IMG/VR virus record: IMGVR_UViG_3300046779_001067
Span: 1 to 61,108 of that record
DNA length: 61,108 nucleotides
Origin: a virus
Taxonomy: Duplodnaviria > Caudoviricetes
Reading direction: 5' to 3' (one strand)
In this document: piece after piece, positions 1 through 54,127 of the stretch
Layout of the letters: each line of letters opens with the position of its first letter
Numbering within the stretch: the stretch's first letter is position 1
Program-made: the position numbers and the translations under genes
The notes under the pieces: model-generated
What the model was told of the DNA's origin: nothing
The model's database searches: none
What the model saw: the letters and a program-made list of their open reading frames with translations, nothing else

Positions 1-105
1 ATTCGCAATCTTGTATTCGTCTGGTGTGAATGCATCGATGTAGCATTCTGGGAACATCTGGCGCAGACGTTCTAACTCTGCGTTGAATAACTTTTGATTG
101 AACAT
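1..105 (-). CDS. 5' part of hypothetical early protein (complete copy at 59265..59501)
   Basis: Identical to 59397-59501; ATG preceded by AAGGTAGGTAGGT. Confidence 0.8.
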   Translation of the reverse strand, partial: MFNQKLFNAELERLRQMFPECYIDAFTPDEYKIAN

Positions 106-166
106 ACCTACCTACCTTATGGAATGAATACCTGTACCAAGAATGATACAGGTATATGTAAACGTA

Positions 167-727
167 TCAGCAACCTATGGATGCTACCAAACGACCAGCG
201 ATGTATTCCTTGATTTCCTTGCGTGTATATGCACCAGCAAATTCAATCTGATGAATGATTCGCTGCACACTATCCCTACCATAGGTAAATGTAATGCTTT
301 CCAAATGCTTGTTCTTGTCGAACTGGAATAGACCATAGTTATGGATGCCGCCATTCCCATAGACTGAGATTTCTAAGTCTATAGAATTGCCTTCTGGGTC
401 ATACAATCCAACGCTTACAGATTCGATATCTAGGATGTGCTTCCAGAACATAGCACGTATATCGTCAAAGTCTATAGAGTAACGTTTGATGCCATATTGT
501 GCATACACTGCATCTGCCACGCTATCGATATGCTCATTCCATACCGTATCAGCACCAGAACACACGCCTATGGTGTTAGGTAATTCCATCACCTGGTGCT
601 TATCACCATCTACGAATGCGTGGTAAAGCTTGAATGAGATACTTTCACGCTGGCATACCTGTACCTGCTCCAACATATCGGATGCCGATATTTGGTCGAT
701 ATCGACCGATTCAATTCTGATGTTCAT
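167..727 (-). CDS. Hypothetical early protein (186 aa)
   Basis: ORF 167..799; start moved to 727 because of the RBS motif and the paralogous copy 59563..60123. Confidence 0.8.
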   Translation of the reverse strand: MNIRIESVDIDQISASDMLEQVQVCQRESISFKLYHAFVDGDKHQVMELPNTIGVCSGADTVWNEHIDSVADAVYAQYGIKRYSIDFDDIRAMFWKHILDIESVSVGLYDPEGNSIDLEISVYGNGGIHNYGLFQFDKNKHLESITFTYGRDSVQRIIHQIEFAGAYTRKEIKEYIAGRLVASIGC

Positions 728-737
728 AACTACCTGC

Positions 738-941
738 CTACTCCTGGATGCCTTCGTTGTCGTTACCGATATACTCTGCGATGATTTCCCCATCATCATC
801 TACCAGCGTTACCGATTCTCCTGCTGCCCTTCCGTATCCAATCGATGATAGGTTTACGTATGTCTGGTATTGATACTCTGCTACCTTCAGAGTGTCATAC
901 TTTCCGATTGTGCCGATGTTACCGACGATAAGTGTATACAT
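738..941 (-). CDS. Hypothetical early protein (67 aa)
   Basis: ORF conserved in the second copy at 60463..60666. Confidence 0.8.
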   Translation of the reverse strand: MYTLIVGNIGTIGKYDTLKVAEYQYQTYVNLSSIGYGRAAGESVTLVDDDGEIIAEYIGNDNEGIQE

Positions 942-947
942 AGCTGC

Positions 948-1202
948 CTATTCTCCTACCTCTGCTTCGTCGCAGACTGTCGCAAAAATGATGATGTTCG
1001 TCCCTTTAGGGAATTCGATTGTGAGTGTGTCATTACTCCAGAAATAGTAACGATGTGGGTATGTGATGCCTAGTGTACGTTTGACCTTGCGAACAACAGC
1101 AGTATCGCTGATTTTACCTGTATGGGTTACAGTCTTACGAACAACCCATCCATAGTTAGCGTTACCTGCGTCTGTGTCTGTCATTTCAATATTGAGATTC
1201 AT
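948..1202 (-). CDS. Hypothetical early protein (84 aa)
   Basis: ORF with GAAAGGCAGGTAGGT RBS; conserved at 60673..60927. Confidence 0.85.
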   Translation of the reverse strand: MNLNIEMTDTDAGNANYGWVVRKTVTHTGKISDTAVVRKVKRTLGITYPHRYYFWSNDTLTIEFPKGTNIIIFATVCDEAEVGE

Positions 1203-1216
1203 ACCTACCTGCCTTT

Positions 1217-1270
1217 CATGACTAGTATACTATATTGTACGGTAGTGTGTAGTGTTAGATATTCCACACT
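1217..1270 (-). promoter_or_regulatory. Repeated early promoter (TATACT -10, TACCGTAC spacer box, upstream TGTG-N-CACA-type palindrome)
   Basis: Near copy of 1563-1615, 3675-3730 and 60942-60995; directly upstream of an RBS and ATG. Confidence 0.7.
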
Positions 1271-1272
1271 AC

Positions 1273-1548
1273 CTACCTTTCTATGAGACTTCCCCAATCA
1301 CCGATACGTATCTTTCCATTCACACGTAGGATTGTTGTAGCGTATGTATCACCCATATTGACGTATGCAATGGTGCGATTTCTATCGTCTATGTATTCAA
1401 CGCCATATCCTTTCAGGATTCTGTTAATTCCACCTAGTGGTATAAAATGTGCGTCAAGCTCACGTTGATGCTCAAATTCTGAGCGTAATGCTTTTGCCTT
1501 GTCGATGCCAAAATGTTTTGCCATCGCTTTTACTGTTGGAATGTTCAT
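1273..1548 (-). CDS. Hypothetical early protein (91 aa)
   Basis: ORF with GAAAGGTAGGCAGGT RBS. Confidence 0.85.
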   Translation of the reverse strand: MNIPTVKAMAKHFGIDKAKALRSEFEHQRELDAHFIPLGGINRILKGYGVEYIDDRNRTIAYVNMGDTYATTILRVNGKIRIGDWGSLIER

Positions 1549-1562
1549 ACCTGCCTACCTTT

Positions 1563-1615
1563 CATAACTAGTATACTGCATTGTACGGTAGTGTGAAGTG
1601 TGAGATATTCCACAC
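1563..1615 (-). promoter_or_regulatory. Repeated early promoter TTCACA-16-TATACT with CRP/FNR-like box TGTGG-N6-TCACA
   Basis: Minus strand reads GTGTGGAATATCTCACACTTCACACTACCGTACAATGCAGTATACT. Confidence 0.7.
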
Positions 1616-1629
1616 TACCCTATGCCTAT

Positions 1630-1923
1630 CTACCTTGCGATTGTTTTGCTCCGTAGGGATTGTTCTACATAATCGTGGAGTCTATCAATGTCATTTGATA
1701 TCGTGAATCCTTCAGCACCATTGCAATCGATGCGCCATAGATTGGCGAGATTAATAACCAATTCATGTAAGGTTTTACGATTCTCGCCCAATTCTGCTAT
1801 GGATGTAGCGATAGATTCCAATTGTTCTATACGTTCGTCCTTGCCCTGGATTGTATGTAAATCCCTGATGTCTGCTAAGATGTCAAATACACGTTCACGC
1901 CTTGTGAGATTGCCAATTACCAT
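1630..1923 (-). CDS. Hypothetical early protein (97 aa)
   Basis: ORF with GAAAGGTAGGTAG RBS. Confidence 0.8.
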   Translation of the reverse strand: MVIGNLTRRERVFDILADIRDLHTIQGKDERIEQLESIATSIAELGENRKTLHELVINLANLWRIDCNGAEGFTISNDIDRLHDYVEQSLRSKTIAR

Positions 1924-1941
1924 TTCTATCTACCTACCTTT

Positions 1942-2241
1942 CTATATACGAACGTCTGATGCTTTGATGTGTGAATAGTATCCCTTTGATGGATAAAGCT
2001 TGAGATAGTTACGTGTACACATACGCTTGACATCAAACCTACCTGCTACGCTATGGCTCCAGCCTTCTCGCTTTATCGCTACGATATGATTTCCAGCATA
2101 TGCCAGCCTTGCGTAGAATGGCATTTCGTTATTCGCTACCTCAAATTCCTTTAGACTCTTGTAATCCTTGATAATGCGTACGTTTCGATTGGCTGCGTAG
2201 TCAGCTTGAGATTGTGCTATGTGAATATCTAAATGGTACAT
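1942..2241 (-). CDS. Hypothetical early protein (99 aa)
   Basis: ORF with GAAAGGTAGGT RBS. Confidence 0.8.
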   Translation of the reverse strand: MYHLDIHIAQSQADYAANRNVRIIKDYKSLKEFEVANNEMPFYARLAYAGNHIVAIKREGWSHSVAGRFDVKRMCTRNYLKLYPSKGYYSHIKASDVRI

Positions 2242-2302
2242 ACATACCTACCTTTCAGACGGTAGGGTATCCAACGGTATGAATACCCTACAGTTACCTA
2301 TC

Positions 2303-2554
2303 TTAGATGTACCTGCCTGATACCTGCCCAGACTCCACCAATTCATGTACATACTTTGCGATATCACGAGCATCAAATTTGTAGAATCCAAATTCAATAT
2401 CTCGGAGAACATCATCGTCTGATGCATCGTATATTTCCATTGATTCGGTTTCATCGTAGACTGTCACGCGAACATTTCCACGTTCATTCCACATATTGAC
2501 GTAGTAACTTGTGTTACCTAGACCATCACGATTTGAAACTGTAACTGCTGGCAT
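2303..2554 (-). CDS. Hypothetical early protein (83 aa)
   Basis: ORF with GAAAGG RBS; fits between intergenic motifs. Confidence 0.8.
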   Translation of the reverse strand: MPAVTVSNRDGLGNTSYYVNMWNERGNVRVTVYDETESMEIYDASDDDVLRDIEFGFYKFDARDIAKYVHELVESGQVSGRYI

Positions 2555-2644
2555 ATCTATAACCTTTCATTGATAACTGGTATCAGTCTGTTAGATACCT
2601 TTCAGATGGTAGGGTATACGCTTGTATACCCTACCGTTACCTAC

Positions 2645-2842
2645 CTACTTGTTATGTGTGCTATTCATCGCTGATAGCACGTCCTGGATTTCCCTAAGCT
2701 GAGAATACACTACTGCAAAGTCTGAGAATCTATCAGTTAGCAATTGCGAGTCTGGCATATGCTTCATTTTCAACACTCGTTTAATTACCTCTGCGATAAG
2801 TAACTCTGCCTCTGGTAACGTTTGTATATCTACGTTATTCAT
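2645..2842 (-). CDS. Hypothetical early protein (65 aa)
   Basis: ORF with GAAAGGCAGGCAGGT RBS. Confidence 0.8.
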   Translation of the reverse strand: MNNVDIQTLPEAELLIAEVIKRVLKMKHMPDSQLLTDRFSDFAVVYSQLREIQDVLSAMNSTHNK

Positions 2843-2874
2843 ACCTGCCTGCCTTTCAAGGTAAATGGTTCCAG

Positions 2875-3234
2875 CTACTTATCGAGCCTACCTTGGAACG
2901 TGAACGATGTTCTGAATTTGTCTGCTGCATCGTAATAGATATCGGTTAGCACGTTACCGTTACCATCTATCGTTGTATACGTTTTGACGTTATGATGCCC
3001 AGAATACAAATTGCGCATCACGTCAAGCAAATCAGCATCCGACATTTGTATATCCATCGAGAATAACTCCGTAGATATATGTATTCGCTTTAGGCTGTTA
3101 AGCGTGTATCGTTGTGATGTAAACGTACCACTTTGGATTACATAACGTCCTGGAAATTTTTCAACGAATACCGTAGCATCCTGAGCTTTGGATAAGTTAT
3201 AAGCGAAAATCATAATATTGAAAATATCTACCAT
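2875..3234 (-). CDS. Hypothetical early protein (119 aa)
   Basis: ORF with GAAAGGTAG RBS. Confidence 0.8.
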   Translation of the reverse strand: MVDIFNIMIFAYNLSKAQDATVFVEKFPGRYVIQSGTFTSQRYTLNSLKRIHISTELFSMDIQMSDADLLDVMRNLYSGHHNVKTYTTIDGNGNVLTDIYYDAADKFRTSFTFQGRLDK

Positions 3235-3294
3235 CTACATCTACCTTTCATCTGGTAGGGTACACGCTCGCATACCCTACCGTTACCTACCTAT

Positions 3295-3624
3295 CTACTC
3301 GTTGTCTTCGTCTTCGTCTTCGTCTTCGTCTTGGGTTAATTCGGCATCATCATTTACGTGACTTGCGATTTCGTGCCAGTCTACGGAACGCATAAAACTA
3401 TTGACTACATCCCCAATAAATCCCTGCGTGATGCTATTCTCCCCATACTTATCATCATCGGAATCTTTACGGTATTTGCTATCGAGGTATTGTTCAACTT
3501 GGCTTTGACACCAATCGGCATCGACAGCTTCACCATTATCGGACGCGATAGATACCATATCATCCATAAACCACAAACCTACGTTCCACGTTTCGTAATT
3601 CGCCCAGCCGTTGTATCGTTCCAT
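3295..3624 (-). CDS. Acidic early protein (YNGWxNYETW motif, poly-DE tail)
   Basis: N-terminal motif familiar from phage early proteins; GAAGAC hexamer repeats encode DEDEDED. Confidence 0.85.
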   Translation of the reverse strand: MERYNGWANYETWNVGLWFMDDMVSIASDNGEAVDADWCQSQVEQYLDSKYRKDSDDDKYGENSITQGFIGDVVNSFMRSVDWHEIASHVNDDAELTQDEDEDEDEDNE

Positions 3625-3674
3625 AGTTACCTACCTGTTACCTTTCATCGGTACTGCGTACCTGCATCTGCCTA

Positions 3675-3730
3675 CACTACTAGTCTACCAGATTGTACGG
3701 TATGTGTGTATGTGAGATATTGCACACATA
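3675..3730 (-). promoter_or_regulatory. Repeated early promoter (TGG-TAGACT -10, TACCGTAC box, TGTGC-N6-TCACA)
   Basis: Similarity to 1217-1270 and 1563-1615. Confidence 0.65.
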
Positions 3731-3752
3731 CCGTATACCCTACGCCTGGATT

Positions 3753-3881
3753 TTATCTACCCTGTAGAATCCACAACCCACAATAGATTATATAGAATGC
3801 GCCAAGTGTGAATACTGCCACCGCCAAGCTTTCAAGCGTACGCCTAGCACGTTTACCTGCGTCAAATGATTTCCTACACAT
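3753..3881 (-). CDS. Small membrane peptide (42 aa; below ORF-track cut-off)
   Basis: MCRKSFDAGKRARRTLESLAVAVFTLGAFYIIYCGLWILQGR; GAAAGG RBS; one hydrophobic segment. Confidence 0.7.
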   Translation of the reverse strand: MCRKSFDAGKRARRTLESLAVAVFTLGAFYIIYCGLWILQGR

Positions 3882-3943
3882 AGTCTTATCCTTTCATCTG
3901 GCAGGGTACCTGTTAGATACCCTGCATTTACCTACCTGCTAAT

Positions 3944-4168
3944 CTATATAGCGTGGTCACCTTCACACGCATTTTCTACATCTGGGTCAATAATGAAATC
4001 CGATACCTCCGCCAATTGTGAATACATCAAACCGATACACTCGGTAAAACTATCGGACAATTCCGGTACATCCTTGCATACCGTAGTAATTGCTTGTTGC
4101 ACGTTACGTAAATTTTGCATGACATGACCCAGCATTTGATGGGCATTTTCTAACGTCTGAATTTCCAT
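3944..4168 (-). CDS. Hypothetical early protein (74 aa)
   Basis: ORF 3944..4210; start moved to MEIQ after the GAAAGG RBS. Confidence 0.75.
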   Translation of the reverse strand: MEIQTLENAHQMLGHVMQNLRNVQQAITTVCKDVPELSDSFTECIGLMYSQLAEVSDFIIDPDVENACEGDHAI

Positions 4169-4228
4169 TTGTTCTAACCTTTCATACTGTGCAGGGTATA
4201 CGGTATGCATACCCTGCTAACCTTTCAT

Positions 4229-4495
4229 CTAGTCGTTGTCGGCATATGCCGATGGTATACGACACTCGCAATTCTCACAGTACAATTCGGGATTCTCCCA
4301 ATTGACATCTGATATTTCTACACACCAATTATCGTCGTCAGTATCGGCACATAATGCGAGGTTGTTATTCACACAATCTGGGCATAAGGTAGCACAATCG
4401 CGCGTTATGTAATAGATAGGGTACAGCCCTGGAAATGCTACCGTTGGGACTGGTTTACTTGCGTCAACCTTGAATGTAAAATTCTCTTTCAACAT
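4229..4495 (-). CDS. Small zinc-binding protein (two CxxC)
   Basis: LCPDC and YCENC motifs. Confidence 0.8.
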   Translation of the reverse strand: MLKENFTFKVDASKPVPTVAFPGLYPIYYITRDCATLCPDCVNNNLALCADTDDDNWCVEISDVNWENPELYCENCECRIPSAYADND

Positions 4496-4499
4496 CGGT

Positions 4500-4604
4500 C
4501 TATTTACCTTTCACCATCAATTCAGAAATGCCAAACGATGTACACCAAATAGATACTGGGAACGCATAGATACATAACGCCATAAACAAATCAGACATCA
4601 ACAT
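4500..4604 (-). CDS. Small membrane peptide (34 aa; below ORF-track cut-off)
   Basis: MLMSDLFMALCIYAFPVSIWCTSFGISELMVKGK; fills the gap between intergenic motifs. Confidence 0.6.
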   Translation of the reverse strand: MLMSDLFMALCIYAFPVSIWCTSFGISELMVKGK

Positions 4605-4672
4605 TTCTACCACCTGATAACCTTTCATAATGTGCAGGGTATACATAGGCGCATACCCTGCTAACCTTTCAT

Positions 4673-4909
4673 CTATTCAGTATCGCCATACTCTGCGGAG
4701 TAAATGCAACCTTCACACACTGTGCATATATCGTAACCACTTGACGGTATATGCGTGATGGTTACATCGTAACAAGTGTTATACACATCGCAATTCTCAC
4801 AACGTGCAAAGTAACTGCCAGACTCAAAATCTGGGCTACCTACAAAGTCGAATTCACCATTTGCATAATGCGCTACATAGTTACATACCAATTCATCTAC
4901 AGTTTCCAT
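4673..4909 (-). CDS. Small Cys-rich acidic protein
   Basis: CENC and CEGC motifs; downstream of a promoter repeat. Confidence 0.75.
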   Translation of the reverse strand: METVDELVCNYVAHYANGEFDFVGSPDFESGSYFARCENCDVYNTCYDVTITHIPSSGYDICTVCEGCIYSAEYGDTE

Positions 4910-4922
4910 AACGTCCTACTTT

Positions 4923-4975
4923 CATATTGAGTATTACATACCGTACGGTATATGGCAAGTGTAAAATGTCACACC
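4923..4975 (-). promoter_or_regulatory. Early promoter TTGCCA-17-AATACT with palindrome ATACCGTACGGTAT in the spacer
   Basis: Seen directly; same spacer palindrome at 5660-5700. Confidence 0.7.
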
Positions 4976-4977
4976 TG

Positions 4978-5295
4978 CTAACCGATAAAGTATTCCGTAC
5001 CGTCTACCCACTGCGTACCGTCTATGTGCCATACAAAGGATTTCTGAGATACTGAAAGCTTGCTACCTATACCCGACAGTATTGCATTGATACGTGATTT
5101 CGTTGTCTGCGTAGAATACCCACGATTCCACAGGGTAATTCGAGTCAAGCCTATCTCGGCAATTAGGCTGTTGTGTAGATACACAAGTGTAATTCTACTG
5201 TCGTCTACGTCTATGTGACGCACTTCCGTATTATCCAACCTCCAGGATTTACCCTGCCGAATAGCCTGCATCATTTGCTTCTCAATTACTCGCAT
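4978..5295 (-). CDS. Conserved phage early protein (TTKSRxNA motif)
   Basis: VYLH...IAEI and STQTTKSRINAIL resemble a widespread phage hypothetical family; function unknown. Confidence 0.8.
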   Translation of the reverse strand: MRVIEKQMMQAIRQGKSWRLDNTEVRHIDVDDSRITLVYLHNSLIAEIGLTRITLWNRGYSTQTTKSRINAILSGIGSKLSVSQKSFVWHIDGTQWVDGTEYFIG

Positions 5296-5406
5296 TTTGT
5301 TTACCTTTCATACTGGGCAGGTACCTTGCGATACCTGCCGATACTACCGTATACCTTTACTGATTTTTATCTACTTTGTTGGTTTGAGAATGATTCTCAA
5401 TAACAG

Positions 5407-5628
5407 TTAGAATGTCCCACCTGTCAATTCAATAACACGTTGGACACATACCCGCAATTTCAAATGGCGAGATTTGTAACCATCAGGTGACAAATTGCGT
5501 GGCGATACACCGTCTGATTCGTGCAATTCAATTGTTGTGTGTTTGATAAGTTCCATAAGTTCCGGTACGTCGTGATTTCGCAAGACATATTGCATCTTGC
5601 GATACTGTAACGATTGCTTGTCTGTCAT
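5407..5628 (-). CDS. Hypothetical early protein (73 aa), first gene of the leftward array
   Basis: ORF with GAAAGGT RBS, downstream of a promoter. Confidence 0.75.
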   Translation of the reverse strand: MTDKQSLQYRKMQYVLRNHDVPELMELIKHTTIELHESDGVSPRNLSPDGYKSRHLKLRVCVQRVIELTGGTF

Positions 5629-5659
5629 CTCTTTGTTTACCTTTCGTAGTTCCTACCGA

Positions 5660-5735
5660 CATCAATAGTATTGCATACCGTACGGTATATTGCAAGGGTT
5701 CAAGCCCAGGATTTAGTGTGAACAATTACACACTG
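5660..5735 (-). promoter_or_regulatory. Early promoter TTGCAA-17-AATACT with ATACCGTACGGTAT palindrome and upstream TGTGA-N6-ACACA
   Basis: Seen directly. Confidence 0.7.
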
Positions 5736-9080: not shown

Positions 9081-9138
9081 GGGGGGTAAGTTTTTTGAGG
9101 GGGGAGGGTCAAGTTTTTTATACCCCTATTAACAAGAA
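9081..9138 (+). promoter_or_regulatory. Intergenic copy of replication-initiator iterons (possible second origin)
   Basis: 9100-9122 is the reverse complement of 53715-53737; 9121-9138 is the reverse complement of 53675-53692. Confidence 0.65.
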
Positions 9139-10177: not shown

Positions 10178-10607
10178 GAACCCACAATCCTAGTGGCGTA
10201 AAGTACGTAAGAGGAATGAAGACGGACAATGCTTCGTCATATTCATTCCTCTTTAATCTTGGACCAGCGAGCCTCGGTTCAAGGTTAGGCATACTTTGCA
10301 CTTCAGCCACGTAATCACCATCAATGAACTCAGTGAGCAGGATAGCGTATCCATTGTAACTTCTCAGGTAGTCCCACTTTGCTTTAGTAATCATTGCATC
10401 TGGGTATGTTCCAAACTTATGAGTACGTTGCTTGAACTCACATATGCCTTTTGATTCCCCAGCTACCCACTCAATATCGTGCCTACACTGCTTGCTAGTG
10501 GTTGATATATCACACTCACCAAATATGCAGAATAGACGGCTTTGCAGTTTGAGTGCTGCATATGCTTCAGCCTGTCGATTGGCGGAGGTTTCAAAAGACT
10601 TGTACAT
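10122..10607 (-). CDS. PD-(D/E)XK nuclease-like protein
   Basis: HD...ICEFKQR motif. Confidence 0.65.
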   Translation of the reverse strand: MYKSFETSANRQAEAYAALKLQSRLFCIFGECDISTTSKQCRHDIEWVAGESKGICEFKQRTHKFGTYPDAMITKAKWDYLRSYNGYAILLTEFIDGDYVAEVQSMPNLEPRLAGPRLKRNEYDEALSVFIPLTYFTPLGLWVPKQTGLQSRSGQIDQQLT

Positions 10608-10628
10608 AAAGGATTCTATAGGTAATCA

Positions 10629-11291
10629 ATGAACGAAGTTAAGACTATATGGAAAACTCCAGATGCTGAGGAACATATTTGTTTCTGTGCAAGAGTCTCA
10701 TCAAGTAAGCAATTTGATAGGACTGAAAAAGAAAACAAACGCCTACTGAAATACTGTATGCGTAATAACCATTGGTCAATCTTTGAAATGGCTAACTGGA
10801 CAATCGGAATAGAGACAACTAGAATGGTTAGCCGTCAGTTCATACGGCATTCAAGTATTCGTGTCCAGGAGTTCAGTCAAAGGTATGCAGAGGTTGATAA
10901 ACCCATTATTGCGCCAACTATGCGTGGCAAGCATCCATACAATCGTCAGTCATCCATTGAGTTGCCAACTGATATGCAAGTTTATGCTGACAGCATTGTT
11001 TCTGATGCAGTTCGCAAGATTCAAGAGTCATATGACCAGTTGATTGAATGTGGCGTAGCCTTTGAAACGGCAAGGGCTATCCTGCCTGAGTGTGCGCCTA
11101 CTAAGTTGTATGCCAACTCATACATCCGTAATTGGATTCACTATATGAACGTACGGCGTGGCAACGGTACGCAAAGCGAGCATGAAGACTTGGCTAACAA
11201 GATATTTGACGAGTTCAAAATACAGTTTCCGTTTATTGCAAGTGTGATGGAAGAGATGAATGAAGAATCGAAGGAGAGTAAAAATGTTTAA
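10629..11291 (+). CDS. thyX: Flavin-dependent thymidylate synthase
   Basis: HWSIFE, RQFIRHSSIRVQEFSQRY and ETARAILP motifs. Confidence 0.95.
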   Translation: MNEVKTIWKTPDAEEHICFCARVSSSKQFDRTEKENKRLLKYCMRNNHWSIFEMANWTIGIETTRMVSRQFIRHSSIRVQEFSQRYAEVDKPIIAPTMRGKHPYNRQSSIELPTDMQVYADSIVSDAVRKIQESYDQLIECGVAFETARAILPECAPTKLYANSYIRNWIHYMNVRRGNGTQSEHEDLANKIFDEFKIQFPFIASVMEEMNEESKESKNV

Positions 11292-11709
11292 CCTACTAGA
11301 TAAGGATGCGGTCATTCCTACTAGGGCTACGTCAGGGTCAGCAGGATTTGACCTGTACGCCACTACAGAGCATATTGTCTATAACGGTGGCATAGCTATT
11401 GTGTCTACTGGTGTGTCTGTAGATATACCTGAAGGACATTACGCTATGGTCTGTTCCCGTTCAGGTCTAGCTGCTAAGTATGGTGTCTTTGTATTGAATG
11501 CACCAGGAATCATTGACTCGGATTACAAGCAGGAAGTAAAGGTAATCCTTTCAAAGGTTCCGGGTAACAACATTGAAGAGCGTGAGTTTGTAATCAACAA
11601 AGGTGACCGCATTGCTCAGTTAGTATTTGCTAAGTGCGATGTAGATATCTTCACCCCAGTGACAAGTGACGCTATTCGTACTGGTGGACTAGGTAGCACA
11701 GGTATCTAG
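11284..11709 (+). CDS. dut: Trimeric dUTPase
   Basis: AGFDL, SRSG, GIIDSDY, GDRIAQL and RTGGLGSTG motifs. Confidence 0.95.
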   Translation: MFNLLDKDAVIPTRATSGSAGFDLYATTEHIVYNGGIAIVSTGVSVDIPEGHYAMVCSRSGLAAKYGVFVLNAPGIIDSDYKQEVKVILSKVPGNNIEEREFVINKGDRIAQLVFAKCDVDIFTPVTSDAIRTGGLGSTGI

Positions 11710-11713
11710 TAGA

Positions 11714-11752
11714 CAAATTAAAAGAGCCAGCTCTGGGAGTAAGCTGGCTCTT
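11714..11752 (-). terminator. Intrinsic terminator (U-tail on minus strand; may also stop dut transcript)
   Basis: AAGAGCCAGCT/AGCTGGCTCTT 11-bp stem; minus-strand tail TTTTAATTT. Confidence 0.85.
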
Positions 11753-11803
11753 CATCATGAAAGGTAGCCTGAATTGAGGTAGGTAGGTAGGTATAACTCA
11801 GAC
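11714..11803 (-). ncRNA. Candidate trans-acting small RNA antisense to the early/middle-gene RBS motif
   Basis: TTGCGG-16-TATACT promoter (11810-11837); 9-bp 5' stem around loop ATACCTACCTACCTACCTC; linker TACCTTTCAT; terminator stem 11722-11752 plus U-rich tail. Confidence 0.75.
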
Positions 11804-11823
11804 AAAAATAGTATACATGATTA

Positions 11824-12051
11824 CTAATTCTCCGCAATACCTGAATTGATATATTCAACGTATTCCAAAGCAACTTTCATCTGAGACCTAGCCGATGTTG
11901 GATAGCCTCTTTTCTTGTAGATGTTTTGCAGATGGTAATGTACCGTACGGGTAGAGATGAGTACTTTATCGCTAATCTCTTTAACTGTCAGTTTATCTAC
12001 AGCCATAAGGTGAAGGATGTACTTCTCTTTTGTTGTGAGGTTGTCAAACAT
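11824..12051 (-). CDS. LuxR/GerE-type helix-turn-helix protein
   Basis: LTTKEKYIL...KEISDKVLISTRTVHYHLQNIYKK. Confidence 0.85.
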   Translation of the reverse strand: MFDNLTTKEKYILHLMAVDKLTVKEISDKVLISTRTVHYHLQNIYKKRGYPTSARSQMKVALEYVEYINSGIAEN

Positions 12052-12403
12052 CTCTTGCTCTCCGTTTCAAAGTGTTGAACTGAGTCTCAGCTTTTGCTTC
12101 ATCTTCATAGAAGTAAATCACGCTTTGAGTTTTACCGTTTGAGTAGTCTTCCCGGTGGAATACAAAGAACGAGTAACTTGGATGCTTAGTGATTGTCCCT
12201 AAGTTACAGATGAGTGTGTGACCCAGACAACGTCCATTGACGCATCCCTCTTCGCAATACTGCTTGCCAATAAACTTCTCTTTCCACTTTGGAGATACGC
12301 CCATAGGTGTTCCGAATGTGCGTTCGTCAAGAAGATTAGCAAGATGAACAATTGCGTTTATGTACAAAGGGTCATCAGTAGATGTGATTAATTTTTGTGC
12401 CAT
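12044..12403 (-). CDS. Hypothetical protein
   Basis: ORF translationally coupled to the HTH gene. Confidence 0.7.
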   Translation of the reverse strand: MAQKLITSTDDPLYINAIVHLANLLDERTFGTPMGVSPKWKEKFIGKQYCEEGCVNGRCLGHTLICNLGTITKHPSYSFFVFHREDYSNGKTQSVIYFYEDEAKAETQFNTLKRRARDV

Positions 12404-12455
12404 ATGATAAGTTTATCAGTTATGTATTAATAGCGTCATACGTTACAATCCGATT

Positions 12456-12704
12456 ATGGGCGTACTGAAGAAATACCAGAATCCTAAGGGTGGGTTGAAT
12501 GCTGCTGGACGAGCGCATTTCAAGAAGACTACTGGTGCTAATTTGAAGCCACCTGCACCTAAGCCTAAAACACCTAAAGATGCTGCAAGACGTAAGTCAT
12601 TTTGTAGCCGTATGGAAGGTATGAAAGCAAAGCGTACGTCTGCAAAAACTGCTTCTGACCCTAATAGCCGTATCAATAAATCGCTAAGAGCCTGGAATTG
12701 TTAG
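12456..12704 (+). CDS. Conserved small basic phage protein (DUF6321-like)
   Basis: NPKGGLNAAGR...RRKSFCSRM...SRINKSLRAWNC. Confidence 0.75.
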   Translation: MGVLKKYQNPKGGLNAAGRAHFKKTTGANLKPPAPKPKTPKDAARRKSFCSRMEGMKAKRTSAKTASDPNSRINKSLRAWNC

Positions 12705-35490: not shown

Positions 35491-37149
35491 ATGGCTATTA
35501 ATCTAACAGGTTTACTACAAGGCTTCCAGCAGGGTAATCAGTTTGTTGAACAGCAAAAGCAGAATAAACGTGCTGAGGAACAGTTCAAGTTAGCCGGTGA
35601 GCAATTCAAACTTACAGAGCGTAAGCAACGTGGTATGGAACTTGATACTAAGTTTAAAGAGGCTAGACGTGTTGCTGAACTAGATGCCGCTGATGAGGAT
35701 GCAACTCTAAAGTCTTTGATGCAACCGGGTATGGATGAAGGTAGCCGACAAGCTATCCTTGCTTCACGTAATCGCAGACGTACTGAGAACGAAGCATACC
35801 TAAAGTCTATGACGGCTGACCCTGAGATGTCTCAGGAGTTGTCAACTAGATTTGGTGATGTTACTAAGTTGATGAAGCCTTCATCGATTCAGTCAGGTAT
35901 GTTGCCAAAGCCATCTATGGATATTTCTCAGCTGATTAAAATGGCAGAGGGATATCGCAAGGAGGCTGAACTTACACCGGATGCTGAGTCTAAGGGATTC
36001 TTGGTTCAACGTGGACGTGATGCACTATCAGCGATTGGTGCTTCACAACAGATTATCGACAAGTTCCTCCCTGGATACAAGTCCGTTGTAGGCAAGGGTG
36101 CTGAAACAGCGTCTCCACTTACTGCGGTTATGGAACCTGAAGCATTGCGTGCTAAGGGTCTTGGTGCAGGTAGTACGTTTGTAGACCCACAGACTGGTCA
36201 GACTGTACGACTTACTGAGCAAGACGGTAAGTTGATGAAGTCTTACGTTACACCTGCAAAAGACATTACTGCTGAATATATGCCTTCAGGTATTGAGGGT
36301 GCTAAAGTCAAGAAGATATACGCTGATATTGACCGTACTGAGGCGGCTATTAAAGATATTGATTCCAAGATAAAAATGCGTCCTGAGGAGATGAAACTCA
36401 AAACGCAACAGGTTTTTGCTAAGATTAGTAACGACCAACTAAGGGCAAAGATTGCTAAGGAGAGTCTTGGTATTCGTTATGCTGGTCTTGCTCTTCGTAG
36501 GGACTTGGCTGAGTTAGCAAGAGAAGACGCAAAGCGTAAGTTAGGCATCAATACATCATTTAGGATGGCTGACTTCAATCGTAAGATTCAGGCTACTGCT
36601 GCAGCTAATGTTGGACGTGCTGAGGCATCATTGCTTAATGCTAAAAAGACATTAGCACAGGCTACAACTGAAGGTAAACCTAACGAACGACAAGCCGCTC
36701 AAGAGGCTATTAATTTTCTTGAAGGTGAAGTTGCAACTTTACGCAGGGCTGCTTCCGGTGGTATTGACTATAGCGGCTTTAAACAATCTATGGACAGTAT
36801 TGGGCTAGGCGATGTTGATATCGATATGTCGATGTTTGGCGGCACATCTCCGATACAAAGTTATGGGTATCAAGGTTACCCACAACAGCAACAAGCACCT
36901 GTTATAGTTATGCCGGGTGGTGGCGCACCAGCACCTTATCCATATCCATATCCGCCGTCTCCTTATCCAGCACCGGGTCCAGCACCTGCACCGGGAGGTG
37001 GCACAACAGCAGGAAGTGCCGTATTTAGATTGAGTGATGGTAGTGCTATTCCGATTGGACCAGATGGTTTTCGTGTAGGTCCACAACCGGGTCAAGTTTC
37101 AAATAAAGCTAACGCACTCGTAAAGATGATGTCAGGTGGCAAAAAGTAA
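35491..37149 (+). CDS. Probable DNA ejection/internal virion protein
   Basis: LTGLLQGFQQG start, coiled coils, Pro/Tyr-rich tail. Confidence 0.65.
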   Translation: MAINLTGLLQGFQQGNQFVEQQKQNKRAEEQFKLAGEQFKLTERKQRGMELDTKFKEARRVAELDAADEDATLKSLMQPGMDEGSRQAILASRNRRRTENEAYLKSMTADPEMSQELSTRFGDVTKLMKPSSIQSGMLPKPSMDISQLIKMAEGYRKEAELTPDAESKGFLVQRGRDALSAIGASQQIIDKFLPGYKSVVGKGAETASPLTAVMEPEALRAKGLGAGSTFVDPQTGQTVRLTEQDGKLMKSYVTPAKDITAEYMPSGIEGAKVKKIYADIDRTEAAIKDIDSKIKMRPEEMKLKTQQVFAKISNDQLRAKIAKESLGIRYAGLALRRDLAELAREDAKRKLGINTSFRMADFNRKIQATAAANVGRAEASLLNAKKTLAQATTEGKPNERQAAQEAINFLEGEVATLRRAASGGIDYSGFKQSMDSIGLGDVDIDMSMFGGTSPIQSYGYQGYPQQQQAPVIVMPGGGAPAPYPYPYPPSPYPAPGPAPAPGGGTTAGSAVFRLSDGSAIPIGPDGFRVGPQPGQVSNKANALVKMMSGGKK

Positions 37150-40100
37150 TGGCTGAAAACCCAAAGCAGAGATTTCGTCGAGTTCTTAATGACCTGTCAC
37201 AAGATGACAGAACATTTATTGATAGTTCACTTCGTCGTATATATAGCGAGTCTCTGTCTTATGGGTTGAAGAATAACTTCCTTACAAAAGATGAGGTAGT
37301 TAAATACCAGAACCTTGGACAACAGCGGGATGCTGCACTTCGTAAGGTGAACGTCCTTGACCCTCAAGGGCAACCTATCTCTAAAGAAACTACCGTTCCC
37401 GTTATGCGTAACGGTCAGATTGTCCAAGAGAAGAGGGTTACACCTGTCACTCCATTTGACTTACTGCGTAGGACTGGCGGTCAGATGGAAGGTGGTCCGG
37501 CAGATGGTCCACTATTTACTGGATATACATTAGATACGCAATCACCTCTTGGCACAGCACGTAAGAGGTTTCAAGAAGAAGTTATCCCTAGTGCAAAGAA
37601 AACTGCATCTGAACTTGAAGCCGCTAAAGGAGAGACTAAGTTTTTCCAACCCGGCACTATAGGTGGGCTTACTGCTGGTGCAATTACGTCCATACCAGTA
37701 GGTGCATTTAAAGCAGTTACCGCACCTCTTGCATCTGCTGTCTCAAGAGGTGTCGGAGTATTTAATCCAGAAGCATCAGAGGCTATGGATACTGCCCTTG
37801 CAAAGGCTTACTATCCTAAGGCAACGATAGATGTATCTCAGCCATTCAAGACTGGTATGGATGTAGCTGAGATTGCTGGCACAAAGTTTGCTGAAGCTAT
37901 TCCTGCATCTATTGCTGCGCTTACTGCTGGTAGTGCTGCTGCTATTCCCGCATCTGCTGTGACTACACCTATTGGTGGTGCTGTAGCTGGAGTTGCGACT
38001 GGTCTTGCAGCTGCCACCGCTACTGGTCAAGCACAAAACTTCCTTACTGAGTTTGCATTAGGCTCTTCTTACAAGCCTTCTGAAAAAGGCTTTGGGTTTG
38101 ATATTCAGCGTAGCCCATTAAGCCAAGCTAGAGCAGAGTTTATGGGTGAGCGTACTGAACTTGCTCCTAGTGCTGCTTTTGCAGGTGAGTTTGCACCCAA
38201 CCTTTTGATGGGTACTCCTACCCTTCCTAAGGGATTTGTAGGTGGATTGAAGTCAGGTTATCAGGCTACTAAACTAGGTACTGCTGGCAGACAAGCACTT
38301 GCGGCTGCATCTATACCTACTGAAGGTCTTGCTGGTAGATTTGCTGCTACGCCATTAGCGCAGACTGGTCGTGCAATAGGTCAGTCACTAGAAAGGATTC
38401 CAGGGGTAGGTACGGCTGCTACGTTTGGTCGTGGATTCTCTGCATCCCCTGCTGGACAAGAGTTCCTTTCTGACATTACTGAGAGAGGCGTTGAAGGTTC
38501 TGCTGACCTTTATCTTGCATTAAAGGGTAATGCTGAGAAGCCTGAGTCAGAGCGTGACCCATTGTGGAAGATTCTAGGCATGACTGCTCTTGGTTCGATG
38601 TTTGAAGGTAGACATCGCCTTGGAGATATTCTTAATGCACCTGGTCAGAAAATTGGCAAGTCGATTGTACGTGGGTTAGATGCTAGATATGGAACAACTA
38701 CTCCATTTGCCTATGAGGGATTGACTCCATCTACTCCTTCTATTACGCCTGAAGGAGTGCCTACAACACCTATTGTGCCTAAGGGTAGGGTATCTGGTAC
38801 ATCTACACCAGCACCAACACTTGCATCTAATGTAGTCCCTATTGGTGGAGGGAATGTTGCTGTCGTTGACGCTGAAACAATGACTACAACTATTCAGCCA
38901 GCACCGCCAGTTGATAGTGATAGGACTCCTATTACAAATCCTGCGATTGGAACTAACGTACTAGATGCAGTAGCAAGTATTGCTCCAAAGGTTAGTGATA
39001 TCGTTTCTGGAACCTACGGGCGTGTTGGGACTATGTTTGGCAGGGTTCCATCAAAGGGTGGAGAAAGCCAGTTGTTCCTTGGCTTGACTGCTGATGGTCT
39101 TGCTATGGTCAAGGTTACAGACAAGAAGACTGGTGAATCAAGCGTTGACCTTATCAGCCCTGACTTGTTGATTGGTGACAATAAGCGCATTGCGAGTAAA
39201 GCATTTAAGGCTGGTAATCTACTACCAAGTGATAAGACTGGATATCAGCGTAAAGGTTACGACTCTGAGTTAAGTCAGGCATCTAGTTATATTCCAACGT
39301 CTGAAGGAGAAGGTCCATCATTTGATGACTTTGACAGAGAGATTAATATTTCTGGCACTCCTTTCTACGGACGGATAGTCAAGGCTGTTGATAACAACTA
39401 CTCAGTTGTTCAGGTCCCATCACCTGTAAGTGGTTTCGATATGATGGTCGTTCCTAACGACACTATTCAAGGAATCACTCGTGAAGGAATCAAAGAAGGT
39501 GTAAAGGCAGGTCAGGTAGCAAGAGAGGTTCTTGATACCACTGCTATGAACCTTGATATGTCAGGTTATAGGGTTGATAGAACAAAGCATAACCCGTTGT
39601 TCAAGGACACTGACAGGACAACTGTAAAGGGAGAGTTTAATCCTATCCTTCTTACACCAGACCAGATGTCTGATGTGGACACACGTAAAACCAATATCCG
39701 TAACTATCGCAATCAACTGATTTCTCAAGGGCTACCTGATGGAACAGTCAAGGATAGGCTTGCTGCGGCTCGCAAAGAAAACAATAAAGGTCTTGATAAG
39801 ACTATTAGCCCTGCTGTCAATCAGTATGAAGTTGGTTCTCTTATAGACCACGTAACTCCATCTGGAGAAGTTGATACGGCTGTTGTTGTTGGTAACTCTA
39901 AATTTGGACCAGTTGCAGTTAGTGCTACTAACCCATCATCACCTGCTTATATTGTCCAGGAATCAGCTATTGCACGAGCATATGGTGAGGTTTCACCTAT
40001 TACAAAGGCAGAGGCTAAAAAGGCTGAGACTGTAACACCTACACCTAAGGTTGAACCTGTTGCTAAGGCTGAACCAGTAAAGAGAACAGAGCCTAAGGTA

Positions 40101-43100
40101 GAACCTGCAAAGAAAGTTGAGCCAAAGGCTGAAGCACCTAAGGTTGAGGAAAAACCTAAACCTGAACCTAAAGTAGATACTTCTACACAAAAACAAAAAG
40201 ATGTAGCTGAAGCACGAAGAAAGATAATAGAAGAAATCGACTCTGAACGGCAAACAATAGAAGACGCATTAAAGCCTGTTCCTCTATCAACAGGTGAGAA
40301 GAAAGAGTTGACTATTACTCCAAAACAACAAGCTATTAATGAAGCTGGTAATGATGGAGCAAAACAGATTGCCGTTGAATTAAAATTTGACGACATGCTT
40401 CCATTTGCCGAGATTGTAAAATCTTGGTTTGGTAAAAAGTTTACAATAGGTGGTGAAACAGGAACATTAATAGGCACTAATCTAAATGGTGAACTCCTGT
40501 TTATGGTGGATGTTGATGCAGGATATAAAGTTTTACGTACGCCACGTATGGCAGACTTATCTGTAGATGAAAAGATTGATATTTTTGGTTCACTATTAGA
40601 TGCAGAAATATTTAGCCGTTTACAACTAAATGCAAATATTGACTCAAATAATTTGCATTATGAAATTCAGTCTCCTGATTTCCCTACTCCTATACCTCTT
40701 GGTGTAGTTAGTAAAAACAGAAGTGAAACGTGGGTTGGTGGACGTAAGATTTATGATGATAATGGATTATCTATATATCAAACATCCAGTGGTCAACTTA
40801 TATACTTGCCAAGTGGTGGTGATGCGACACCTGTAGTTGAGCCTATTAATACAGGGAGAACAAGCAGTAGTCCTGAGTTTAGACCACGAGGTACGACTCC
40901 AGTAACACAAGTATCAGTAACTGCTCCTGTTACAACACCTGTTGAGCCAAAGCCAGAGGCTGTAGTACAACCAAAACAACAGGCTAAACCTGCACCTACG
41001 GTTGAGCGACCTGCTCAGGCTGGTGAGTTGGCTCGCCCAATACGTGGTGGATTGAACAGGATTGATGCTGGTGTTAAGGATTTAAAGAAGAAGTTAGTAA
41101 CATTCAAGGTTGATGACCTTGGCAACAAGCGTAATCCTGACCCATATAATCAGGCTAGGGTTGATGATTCTAGACGTGCTGTCGAGTCAACCGTTGACAC
41201 TCTGTCTAAGGATTTTGTTGAAACACTATCTAAAGTTTCAATTGCAAAGACAAAGGTTATTGACACTCTGGCAAAAGAAATTGAATCAGGCAAAGCAACT
41301 CCTGAGTCAATAGCACTTGCAGAAACGTCTATCAAGAATATTGATTCTGCAATAGCATCTATAAAGTCTAACTTTAATAGTGTCAAGCCATCGCTTGATA
41401 CGCACCTTGGTGAGCAATCAAGGATTGGTGCTATATCAAAGTCTATTGATAGGCTTGAAAGTTTAAAGTTACCTGAGGCTAAAGCGAAGGAAGTTAAGCC
41501 TGTAGAGCCTAAGGTTGAAGTCACTAAGCCTACTACTCCTGAGGCTGAAGTTAAACCTACTACGCCTACTACTACGTTTACACCTCAAGAGCAAAAGGTC
41601 ATCAATGATGTTGAAGCAGAGATAAATGCGGAGACTCGATATTGGGGACGTGTCCTTACTAGAATTAAAGGATGGGATACGTTTAGTGATGCAGCAAAGA
41701 GGGAAATAAAATCACTTGTAGATGATAACGGGGCTGAACTTCTTGCTCCAGAAATAGATGATACTTTTGACAGCAACATAATGGAGTTTGAAACATTACC
41801 TCTTAACTTCACTAATCGTGTAGCAAAAGTGTTGCGACCTGGAATGATAGCACCGGACGGGTCAAAGTTTAAGGCTATAGTTGAACGAGGTAGCACAACA
41901 CCTGTCGTAAAACCAGAACCAAAGATTGAAACACCTAAAGCTGAAGTTAAACCTACTACCTTTACACCTGAAGAAAAAACTGCAATTGATAAAATTGCTG
42001 ACTTGTTGCAAAGCAGTGACATCCGTTGGGGACGAGTTAAATTTGCAACGCAAGGATGGAATACATTTAGTGATGCTGCAAAGGCAAGAATAACTCAACT
42101 AGTAAATGCCAAGAATGGTGAAGTTATTGCTCCAAAATTTGGTGACACCGTAGATGAAACCATTATGGACATTGGACTTGTCACTGGTGATTACTCTGGA
42201 AAAGTTGCTGAAACCATTGCTGCTGGTATGCGAGATAAGTCAACTGGAGATGTATTTATAGCTAAGGTTCGTCCAGCATCTACTGGTGAGATTAATGCTG
42301 GTAAACCTGAAGTAACTACACCTGTAGAGCCTACAGTTGAAGGTCCCGTCACAGGATTTGGTGTAGAGAGTCCTAAGGACGTAGCTCAACTTACTGGTGA
42401 GAAGCGTTTTGAATTAGGTAAAAAACTAAACAAAGAACAACGTGCTTCCATCCTTAAAAGAGTTGGCGATTCATACAAAGACCAAAGGCATCAGAAGGAA
42501 TTTGCTGGGCTTGATAGTCGTGGCGAAGAGATGTATCGATACCCATATTCAACTGAGCATATGTACGTATCTAACATTACAGGAAAGTTCATCCGCTACT
42601 ACGTTGTAATACCTTCTGATATAGCACAAGAACTAACTGGAGTGAAGCGTGACATCTACGCTCATCCTAGTGAGTTGTTCCCTGATATCTCAATGCCAAA
42701 GGCAGTTGAGATGGCACGTATGACTAAGTCAAAGGAGTTGCGTGAACTTATTGCTGAGGCTGAGTCTAATGGCTTTATTACAGAAAATGAAAGCCGTACC
42801 GCTATCAACATACTGCCATCGTATGTAGAGGATAAGGCAAAGCCTAACCGCACAAAGACTATCGAAGACATCATTCGTAAGGCAGAGCGCATTAATGAGC
42901 CTAACGAAGAAGTGGATGTTCTTGAGAAGGCTATTCGTGATAACGCTAAGGATGGAATACCTGAATTCTTAGATGCTAAGATGCTTGCTAATTTTGCTGA
43001 AGGCAAGTTAGCAAGAACATATGCTTTCAAGGATATTAATGGTCTACCTATTCGTCAGTTCCCTGGAGTAGTCACTGCTGCTAAGGCTCGCATAAAGAGG

Positions 43101-49214: not shown

Positions 49215-49454
49215 CTACTCTCCATCTTTACTTTCCTCTTTATGTTGGATGAGGTCTATCTCAACTGACGCTAGTTTAGATAACTTGTACATCATCATGT
49301 ACTGGTCAACTCTACGTTGGCTAGACTCGTCCTCGATATCAATACCTTTCTCTTCCAGCCATATTCCCATACGTATGTATTCTATGTAATCGTATATGAG
49401 AGTGAACCCATAACAGATTGCTATTCCTATGACTGCTCCGATTAGGTATTGCAT
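49215..49454 (-). CDS. Small membrane protein
   Basis: N-terminal TM. Confidence 0.7.
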   Translation of the reverse strand: MQYLIGAVIGIAICYGFTLIYDYIEYIRMGIWLEEKGIDIEDESSQRRVDQYMMMYKLSKLASVEIDLIQHKEESKDGE

Positions 49455-49459
49455 ATGTG

Positions 49460-49723
49460 CTACTTATCTTTCAGCATGACTGTACGTATTAATGTCCTGT
49501 TGTTATAGGTAGATAGGATAGATGCTGCACTGTCTACTATTGTTAGGTATTTGGGATTCACTATCTTCCCTGCGTGTCCAACGATTCCATCATCATTTTT
49601 TACGTAGACATCAGCAGCATATTCATTTGGGTGTTTCTCGAAGAACTTATATGCAGTCTTTGCTAGTTCTATGATAAGACTCTCGTCTTTATTAGGTCTT
49701 ATTGCTTGCAATTCAATCTTCAC
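49460..49723 (-). CDS. Hypothetical protein
   Basis: ORF in a coupled operon. Confidence 0.7.
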   Translation of the reverse strand: MKIELQAIRPNKDESLIIELAKTAYKFFEKHPNEYAADVYVKNDDGIVGHAGKIVNPKYLTIVDSAASILSTYNNRTLIRTVMLKDK

Positions 49724-49925
49724 TTGTCACCTCGCTAATATCTATCTGCAACACGCTTGCAATCTGGTTTATGTATTGAGAGCCGTCTCTCCTGCCCTTC
49801 TCAATACAGTTCATTATCTGAGGTGATATGTGAGAGCCATCAGTATTGAATACTTTACGAGCAAGCTCTCTTTGTGACATCCCTAACTCTTTACGGCGTG
49901 TAACGATAACCTCACCTATTGTCAT
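49713..49925 (-). CDS. XRE-family HTH protein
   Basis: RRKELGMSQRELA...IEKGRR. Confidence 0.85.
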   Translation of the reverse strand: MTIGEVIVTRRKELGMSQRELARKVFNTDGSHISPQIMNCIEKGRRDGSQYINQIASVLQIDISEVTSED

Positions 49926-50173
49926 CTTGTTACCTTTTTGTTGCCATCAACAATATGGTCATCAGACCATTTGCCATAATCCCAGTCACTTGCGACTAGG
50001 TCATCTAGTGTTACGCTTGGATACTTATCGCATATATCCATACCGATATTGAAGTCGTGGTCTATGAACTGCTGGATACTTGCATCGTGGTACAAGGCTC
50101 TTGTTTTACCCCACGCCTTGCGATAGATAGGTCTACCTGCTTGTAGGTGCTTTAGTATTCCACCGAATGTCAT
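49922..50173 (-). CDS. DUF2829/Tad2-like protein
   Basis: MTFGG..KHLQAGRPIYRKAW...DLVASDW. Confidence 0.7.
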   Translation of the reverse strand: MTFGGILKHLQAGRPIYRKAWGKTRALYHDASIQQFIDHDFNIGMDICDKYPSVTLDDLVASDWDYGKWSDDHIVDGNKKVTR

Positions 50174-50626: not shown

Positions 50627-50726
50627 TCCTAACTCCTAGTATGCTTGTCTATCAAGTATCCTAAACCCAAATAGTAGCAGGTTATGGATGCAACGACGAT
50701 GCAGATTATGGTCAAAAGTACGTTTA

Positions 50727-53188: not shown

Positions 53189-53232
53189 ACCTACCTCCTA
53201 TGCCAAGTACTTTACCATAATACACCGTACTG

Positions 53233-54105: not shown

Positions 54106-54127
54106 AACTACCTCCTTGGGAATAGGA

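Follow-up and report, generated by a model that had tools for sequence, protein, structure and literature searches.

RsaE, LhrC and the csRNAs are small RNAs (sRNAs) that act on multiple targets through anti-Shine-Dalgarno (anti-SD) sequences. AbcR1 is of a similar kind and addresses many mRNAs via two exposed C/U-rich anti-SD modules (PMC4152367). The c4 RNA of phages P1 and P7 has loop sequences that pair around the ribosome-binding site (RBS), block translation and set the immunity specificity between related phages, and the phage sRNAs covered in the accessible part of the same 2025 review have a single phage gene or host genes as their targets (PMC12197685). SviR of the PLE satellite is a trans-acting sRNA that lowers the translation of phage mRNAs; it is made by a satellite against another genome, and its abstract mentions no shared RBS tag (bioRxiv 10.1101/2022.04.08.487710). 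The element described here, a predicted sRNA of an uncultured tailed phage, resembles c4 in being a phage RNA with loops that would pair around an RBS, and AbcR1 in having two anti-SD-type modules and many targets. The target of c4 is a single antirepressor mRNA in a temperate phage, whereas about 19 target genes with one motif are predicted here; a linked antirepressor operon of the c4 type was not found among 40 proteins scanned (a subset of the genes), and no Rfam match links the element to c4. AbcR1 is chromosomal and pairs with canonical SD-like host sites, whereas the present element is phage-encoded and matches a private RBS variant of its own genome that changes with the loop; the Rfam comparison gave no sequence relation to AbcR1-type sRNAs. 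The pairing chemistry is known, but no phage RNA aimed at a shared, co-changing RBS tag of its own early genes was found in the literature searched, in which subscription journals are poorly covered.

A parallel on the side of the RBS is found in the cluster K mycobacteriophages, as described in two papers. A 13-bp sequence, SAS, overlies the RBS of non-structural genes in one orientation (PMC3203893), and promoter-linked repeats, ESAS, are present upstream of SAS (PMC3203893, PMC11373665). In four K1 genomes there is one reverse SAS, which is not at a gene start (PMC3203893). The role of SAS was called unknown in 2011, in a paper that asks whether RNA or protein binds it (PMC3203893), and still in 2024 (PMC11373665). 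The RBS motif of the phage studied here is SAS-type in kind, being asymmetric and present over the RBS of non-structural genes only; it does not match the cluster K SAS consensus, the motif of the window being AUGAAAGG/GGUAGGU.

The window, by which we mean the whole stretch of 61,108 nucleotides that was analysed, is one near-complete virus record of about 61 kb from a lake. The virion and lysis genes are on the plus strand (terminase at 15092, portal at 16956, capsid at 20072 and endolysin at 48416), and a 3756-aa ORF is present in the virion region (37149-48419). Small minus-strand genes, mostly of unknown function, run leftwards from 5628, and the minus-strand run resumes at the opposite end of the record with genes for ERF, a Gam-like protein, a C5 methyltransferase, an HTH protein and DnaB. 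From position and gene content we infer an early class (105-5628) and a middle class (49454-59245). Positions 1-1383 and 59397-61108 carry the same sequence twice, with 93-96% identity and a length difference of 320 bases; these repeated ends probably reflect a circular genome assembled from mixed strains, and five gene starts duplicated by the repeat were excluded from the counts. An inverted match (85% identical) was also seen between 9081-9138 and 53675-53735. In relatives, tandem paralogous genes for basic low-complexity proteins, with N- and C-terminal stretches in common, are found upstream of the terminase genes (loci L152 26-1910, L050 and L066). No cultured relative was found, capsid matches being limited to 24-25% identity. 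A terminase relative is present on a 61-kb contig of an Armatimonadia metagenome-assembled genome (MAG), but a DNA search of 301 genomes of the phylum of this MAG matched just that assembly plus one 86-base stretch, and no 16S gene was found in the MAG. Helicase look-alikes were uninformative as a clue to the host. The canonical 16S end was found exactly in 10 of 26 genomes of the candidate-host class and in one more with 2 mismatches. Searches for tyrosine integrase and for serine recombinase domains were negative in all five records examined for each.

The element occupies the gap between a 75-aa GerE/LuxR-type HTH protein gene upstream (11824-12051, minus strand; PF00196, E 1.3e-10) and a convergent dUTPase gene (11260-11709, plus strand; phrog_135, E 9e-47). 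A candidate -35 box, TTGCGG, is present at 11832-11837 on the minus strand, within the last codons of the GerE/LuxR-type gene, and is followed after 16 nt by a candidate -10 box, TATACT (11810-11815), which ends 6 nt ahead of the predicted RNA. This RNA would be about 90 nt long (11714-11803, minus strand), both ends being predicted; all these positions agree with those given in the original prediction. The 5' hairpin (11767-11803) has 9 bp, two of which are G-U pairs, and a 19-nt loop (loop 1, 11776-11794) with the ACCU-repeat AUACCUACCUACCUACCUC, antisense to the sequence GGUAGGUA(U) that adjoins the start codon. The hairpin is followed by a single-stranded linker, UACCUUUCAUGAU with the core UACCUUUCAU (11754-11766), which is complementary to the upstream half of the RBS motif, AUGAAAGGUA, and by a terminator-like 3' hairpin (11721-11753) with the conserved C-rich loop ACUCCCA. 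The minus-strand 90-mer folds into the two hairpins with an energy of -28.8 kcal/mol (z -5.36), which none of 200 shuffles equalled, whereas the plus strand of the same 90-mer gave a z of -1.06 (24/200 shuffles as good) and lost the 5' hairpin, confirming that the stem with its two G-U pairs closes on the minus strand only. The energy of the 5' hairpin alone is unremarkable (z -1.22). No Rfam covariance model matched the window at its gathering score; the sole signal was a chance U7 match (E 1), which scored 14 bits where the cut-off is 34. Three runs of the same study gave nothing over 10600-12500, a result that carries no weight for or against expression. In a scan with consensus promoters the sRNA promoter of the window falls below the threshold and is unlisted, and the case for the promoter therefore rests on its conservation. 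The RNA is 79-94 nt long in clades A-G of the relatives described below. An ATG is present inside it in just 2 of 8 clades, and every frame is closed in C, D, F and H, as expected of a non-coding RNA; a small ORF (11718-11873) was considered as a coding product and rejected, as it is not conserved across the clades. The loop of the 3' hairpin (11734-11740) is C-rich throughout (ACUCCCA, ACCCCUUC or ACCCCUCC; loci L109 and L139), though the stem changes. As a seed this second loop was rejected: it has no 8-nt match at any of 74 gene starts and shows a weak bias to middle genes (p 0.025).

Complementarity to gene starts was scored in 74 windows reaching from -24 to +5, the starts being chosen by hand; for three early genes (4613, 4168 and 727) the RBS was visible when the choice was made. 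Uninterrupted pairing with loop or linker over at least 8 nt was found at 15 of 18 early starts and 4 of 16 middle starts, and at none of the 34 plus-strand starts and none of the 6 other minus-strand starts. None of 1000 loop shuffles reached the early value, and in a blind set of starts runs of at least 7 nt were present in 15 of 16. The bias to early genes that had been proposed is thereby borne out, as is the absence of the motif from the structural genes, but its extension to the middle genes holds for a quarter of their starts. Predicted target sites on the minus strand include the 14-nt perfect matches to loop 1 listed originally, at 104-117, at the C5 DNA methyltransferase gene (55350-55363, within an RBS at 55350-55365) and at the Gam-like gene (56714-56727, RBS at 56714-56730; its Pfam score is under the curated cut-off). 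The site at 104-117 is in the duplicated end, and its second copy (59505-59513) matches over 9 nt only. At two composite RBSs (1201-1221, by matches and cofolding, and 1547-1565) linker and loop would act together; further predicted sites are at 1930-1942, 2244-2257 and, in the replication region, at a 126-aa gene (53188-53197), and the linker matches described before were also recovered. The other early RBS matches are at 2562-70, 2841-54, 3241-51, 3623-48, 3890-97, 4177-85, 4505-13, 4620-28, 5302-11 and 5638-45. The perfect runs are 8-14 nt long, with the element 6-45 kb away from the matched sites; the long matches pair 4-nt repeats, and their information content is below what the length implies.

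Genome-wide counts gave the same picture. The loop 1 14-mer occurs 21 times with at most 2 mismatches (0.53 expected), 19 times on the minus strand and as 2 overlapping copies in the element; ATGAAAGG occurs 13 times (1.88 expected), 12 times on the minus strand and once in the element. Of the loop matches with 9 nt or more, 16 are on the minus strand, and those on the plus strand are confined to the element; for the linker, with a threshold of 8 nt, the minus strand has 28 matches and the opposite strand has the element and one other site. The original observation of the motif in antisense orientation at this place only is qualified by two shorter antisense 8-mers on the plus strand, at 8688 and 38405. 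The accompanying observation that a following gene is missing here only proved wrong: five matching sense copies (1269-1281, 2596-2604, 2638-2648, 3284-3293 and 3929-3937) have no subsequent start codon. The cofold gain was -14.9 for early, -9.5 for middle and -5.1 for plus-strand starts. In the composite RBS, AUGAAAGG is followed by GGUAGGU-AUG, and the RNA has its two modules in mirror order, which allows both of them to pair with a single site, as seen in the cofold with gene 1202.

Searches for relatives started from the capsid, from the GerE-type gene and from an alignment of the gene upstream (119 aa), and they yielded 56 loci, many of which are one contig in two collections and 5 of which end too early. 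The element was found directly after the HTH gene in 38 of the 51 assessable loci and was absent from 13, and its loop changes with the RBS motif of the phage, as the original prediction had anticipated. It is present in all 36 assessable loci with at least 67% identity; among the 15 loci with 50-56% identity only the two of clade H have it. The HTH gene is retained in phages without the element. Eight variants were distinguished: A (the window), B, C, D and E have ACCU-repeat loops, F and G have UUCCCCUCCC and H has ACCUAACCUCCU, and the linker becomes AACCUUUCUA in C and D. In clades A-E (9 sequences) all 142 of 142 cells are paired, a value equalled by 9 of 500 shuffles, slid controls giving 24-44%. 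All three variable pairs of stem 1 in these clades swap between Watson-Crick and G-U, changes that would be mismatches on the opposite strand. The outer five pairs of stem 1 are kept in 75 of 75 cells (15 sequences); pair 5 goes from G-C to A-U in F and G, and three adjacent pairs of stem 2 are changed on both sides in these two clades; in F one position is unpaired. The pairs of F and G were counted by anchoring on the stem ends, since a MAFFT alignment of the whole set of clades was wrong at stem 1. The pairing counts argue for a conserved secondary structure with an exposed seed, which is doubtful for clade H. The fold energy is a point against: it favours the RNA strand in A, B, C and E only (4 of 8 clades), is tied in D, F and G, and is reversed in H.

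The spacing of the candidate -10 box is conserved as well. A -10 box TATACT or TATAAT is located 5-6 nt ahead of the stem in 7 of 8 clades (A-G) and reads TAAAAT in H; the -35 box is TTGCCA in B, C and E, TTGACA in D (giving TTGACA-16-TATACT) and TTGAAT in F and G. In F, G and H this box shares bases with the stop codon of the preceding gene, a point against the favoured reading. The 3' hairpin is terminator-like, as proposed, but the U-rich tail is absent from B, D and E, where the 3' ends are CUCCUCCUUAUU or similar. Past the 3' hairpin the element in these clades ends in CUCCUCCUU or CUCCUCCUC, a canonical anti-SD (loci L097, L100 and L125). A covariance model built from A-E found one copy each, at the fixed place, in 6 records; it missed known F and H copies, and its blanks in 15 other records are uninformative. 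A descriptor scan of 1.84 Mb of loci recovered clades A-H and no convincing new class, although its cut-off for C-content missed the variant of the window itself. Pattern scans of viral contigs yielded known clades only among the 237 matches listed, and comparison of the element with annotated phages gave no meaningful match. Overall, the element is real and conserved, well beyond chance.

Loop and tag change together between the clades. The loop ACCUACCU is paired with a GGUAGGU tag and CCCCUCC with GGAGGGG, and the linker CCUUUCAU or CCUUUCUA with AUGAAAGG or UAGAAAGG, clade C genes favouring UAGAAAGG. In three near-complete A/B records the early strand has 21, 20 and 23 copies of AGGTAGGT and the opposite strand 3, 2 and 2, every one of the latter within the element; the early strand of a 93%-complete clade F record has none, and eight searched virus records without a known element have at most 3 per strand. 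Early genes of this F record use ATATTGGAGGGGTTCA-ATG and variants. GGAGGGG, of which the window has 0 copies, is found in the F record 6 times on the early strand, 5 of these directly before early ATGs, and once on the opposite strand, in the loop of the element; the reversed control also occurs 5 times on the early strand, and the argument rests on the position before ATG. In gene sets defined blindly by the first ATG, some members of which are not genes, 7-nt runs with the F and G RNAs were absent from all 76 windows of A/B/C and present in 8 and 7, respectively, of the 21 windows of F; the A-E RNAs had such runs in 4, 1, 0, 0 and 1 of these 21. The mean duplex energies in the F phage give a slight edge to the F and G RNAs (-10.4 and -11.4 vs -8.7 to -10.0 for A-E). 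Clade A regions hold 23 copies of ATGAAAGG and 2 of TAGAAAGG, clade C regions 1 and 10 (sites that are not independent); this difference, AU vs UA before GAAAGG, matches the linkers CCUUUCAU and CCUUUCUA. For clade H three starts were seen, all AGGAGGT, the canonical SD, which fits the H loop and proves little. On a tree of the neighbouring gene, with three label changes among four groups, the loop type changes just 2-3 times, so the evidence for co-change consists of few independent events. A phage with the GGUAGGU tag and without the element, which would speak against the original prediction, was not found among 19 records searched. A weaker form of this case exists in a sister clade, one of those without the element: its RBS tag is a different one, AGGAGAACAGAC, with 12 sense copies, and in its complete record no antisense element was found, only three antisense near-matches in seemingly coding contexts. 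A common RBS tag, therefore, does not require the RNA, and tags without it probably arise through repeated intergenic modules. In the sister clade a module TTGACAGACAGG...AGGAGAACAGAC-ATG is present ahead of nearly every early gene (loci L119 13000-17096 and L120 13800-15636).

The early region also has promoter-like sites of its own. Two of these, starting from 5695 and 4958 on the minus strand (within 4930-5695), have the palindrome ATACCGTACGGTAT in the spacer. TACCGT(A), often palindromic, is seen in the spacers 4930-4958 and 5667-5695 (minus strand) and in loci L153, L140, L099, L104 and L127. The core TACCGT is found in early promoter spacers of clades A, B, C, F and G, where it is constant while tag and loop change, and in none of the 8 sRNA promoters; it is possibly an operator for the GerE-type protein. 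Repeated intergenic hairpins of the type GGTAGGGTA...TACCCTACC directly precede ATGAAAGG on the minus strand (2249-2300, 2596-2647, 3242-3293, 4175-4231 and 4618-4675), and repeated promoter modules are present at 1198-1273, 1544-1619 and 3679-3736. This arrangement gives the early region the appearance of a series of exchangeable cassettes, similar to ESAS.

The reading that we favour, with the chances somewhat on its side, is that a trans-acting sRNA represses the translation of the tagged early genes. That the element is an RNA that pairs with the tagged sites is the safer part of this reading and has a high probability in our estimation. The outcome of pairing could also be the processing, decay or stabilization of the early polycistronic RNA. 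Duplexes of more than 20 bp are possible, and matches without a start codon are present at gene ends just 5' of the repeated hairpins (2638-48, 3284-93, 3929-37 and 1269-81); yet most matches cover the SD site and the start codon, and the order of linker site and then loop site suits an antiparallel duplex across the entire RBS, and we regard such an outcome as unlikely. If the motif were a protein site, it could be a DNA operator of the adjacent GerE-type protein, or the plus strand could be an RNA decoy for a GGUA-binding protein, titrated by the inverted copy. The GerE-type HTH gene is indeed the fixed upstream neighbour, and the plus strand has no U-tract past the hairpin, so read-through from dut could carry GGUAGGUA. 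This reading is improbable: the G-U-type changes in the stem pair on the minus strand only, the -10 box faces the opposite direction from a decoy transcript, the HTH gene is also kept where the element is missing, and the palindromic motif of the early spacers, which does not follow the tag, is the better operator candidate.

We consider it quite improbable that the RNA is a generic anti-SD sRNA against host mRNAs, its fit to the phage following from strong SD sites. Every loop is C/U-rich, that of H is near the canonical anti-SD, and the 3' ends of B, D and E are of the CUCCUCCUU type. A generic anti-SD 14-mer also favours early over plus-strand starts (p 2e-5), but its preference is weaker (-10.4 vs -16.7 for the element), and it has a run of at least 8 nt at 0 of 18 early starts. 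Moreover, where a phage departs from the canonical SD its loops depart with it, even in the choice of AU or UA before GAAAGG, and AGGTAGGT is rarer than its reversed control in the one assembly of a tentative candidate host (53 vs 294). An inverted relic of an early intergenic module beside an ordinary terminator, with no regulatory RNA, is very improbable. Early intergenic modules are duplicated within the genome and 4-nt repeats are easily made by slippage; a relic would not account for one copy per genome at a fixed place, for stems that are conserved while loop length and sequence change, or for the conserved spacing of the -10 box. Translational repression by the RNA, as put forward in the original prediction, is partly supported overall, with its expectations at the level of sequence borne out.

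The comparison with cluster K was extended to the genomes. Late transcription starts between genes 92 and 93 (PMC11373665), and a reverse SAS is present in the 92/93 gap of Adephagia, Anaya and CrimD and was not found in TM4 and Pixie. Adephagia and Anaya have, about 100 nt past a conserved promoter-like site, a long hairpin with the reverse SAS as its 10-nt loop, CCUCCUAUCC. As in the window, the motif overlies the RBS of non-structural genes and a lone reverse copy is present in a hairpin loop; the sequences are unrelated, and the anti-SAS loop is within a multi-hairpin late leader and not in a stand-alone gene. This leader, with a conserved promoter-like site and then several conserved hairpins over about 250 nt (loci L161 886-1115 and L162-L174), is unannotated or, in some records, called short hypothetical genes. 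In 14 aligned genomes, 10 picked among the more distant of 182 matching records plus four others, the anti-SAS loop is intact in 5, degenerate and C/U-rich in 3 and absent from 6. SAS is unchanged in the 7 genomes checked of the 9 in which the loop is degenerate or absent; a general co-change of loop and tag in cluster K was therefore rejected. For gp39 of Adephagia an Hfq-like fold is listed, and its gene, 39, has an ESAS-type promoter (PMC11373665); if SAS acted by RNA pairing, an RNA chaperone made by the phage would be in keeping with this. The SAS parallel is a lead for K1 only and no general explanation. Adephagia is a cultured phage in which the anti-SAS loop can be mutated, and this makes the SAS question open to experiment.

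From the element, its conserved fold, the complementarity, the early bias and the co-change of tag and loop, all of them properties of the sequences, we infer a course of events that would run from transcription and defined RNA ends to pairing in the cell, repression and its timing. A separate promoter of the sigma70 type, located behind the GerE-type gene, would give rise to an sRNA of about 80-95 nt, and loop 1 and the linker of this sRNA would pair with the composite RBS (AUGAAAGG...GGUAGGU-AUG) of early mRNAs. The duplex would cover the SD site, and often the start codon, thereby blocking the loading of ribosomes. Since the sRNA promoter is early-like but without TACCGT, the RNA would build up through infection, leading to a delayed translational shutdown of the early mRNAs. 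If TACCGT is an operator, a protein would shut off early transcription while the RNA accumulates and silences the mRNA already made. An incoming relative that carries this tag would also have its early mRNAs silenced by the RNA. As no integrase or serine recombinase domain was found, a lytic timer or the exclusion of relatives is likelier than prophage immunity.

A wider interpretation, which is tentative and to our mind rather doubtful, is that of a translational address code: a lineage-specific tag on all early genes would be read by one RNA, the two co-evolving like immunity groups, and would end the early phase and exclude relatives with the same tag, the lone reverse SAS of the K1 late leader being a separately evolved instance of the same logic. 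If true, this would be the first mechanism for SAS elements. The system also offers natural orthogonal pairs of RBS and sRNA. For the phages themselves, the early-to-late transition would gain a translational off-switch if one RNA read a co-evolving RBS tag common to a whole set of early genes, and relatives could be excluded by the same simple means.
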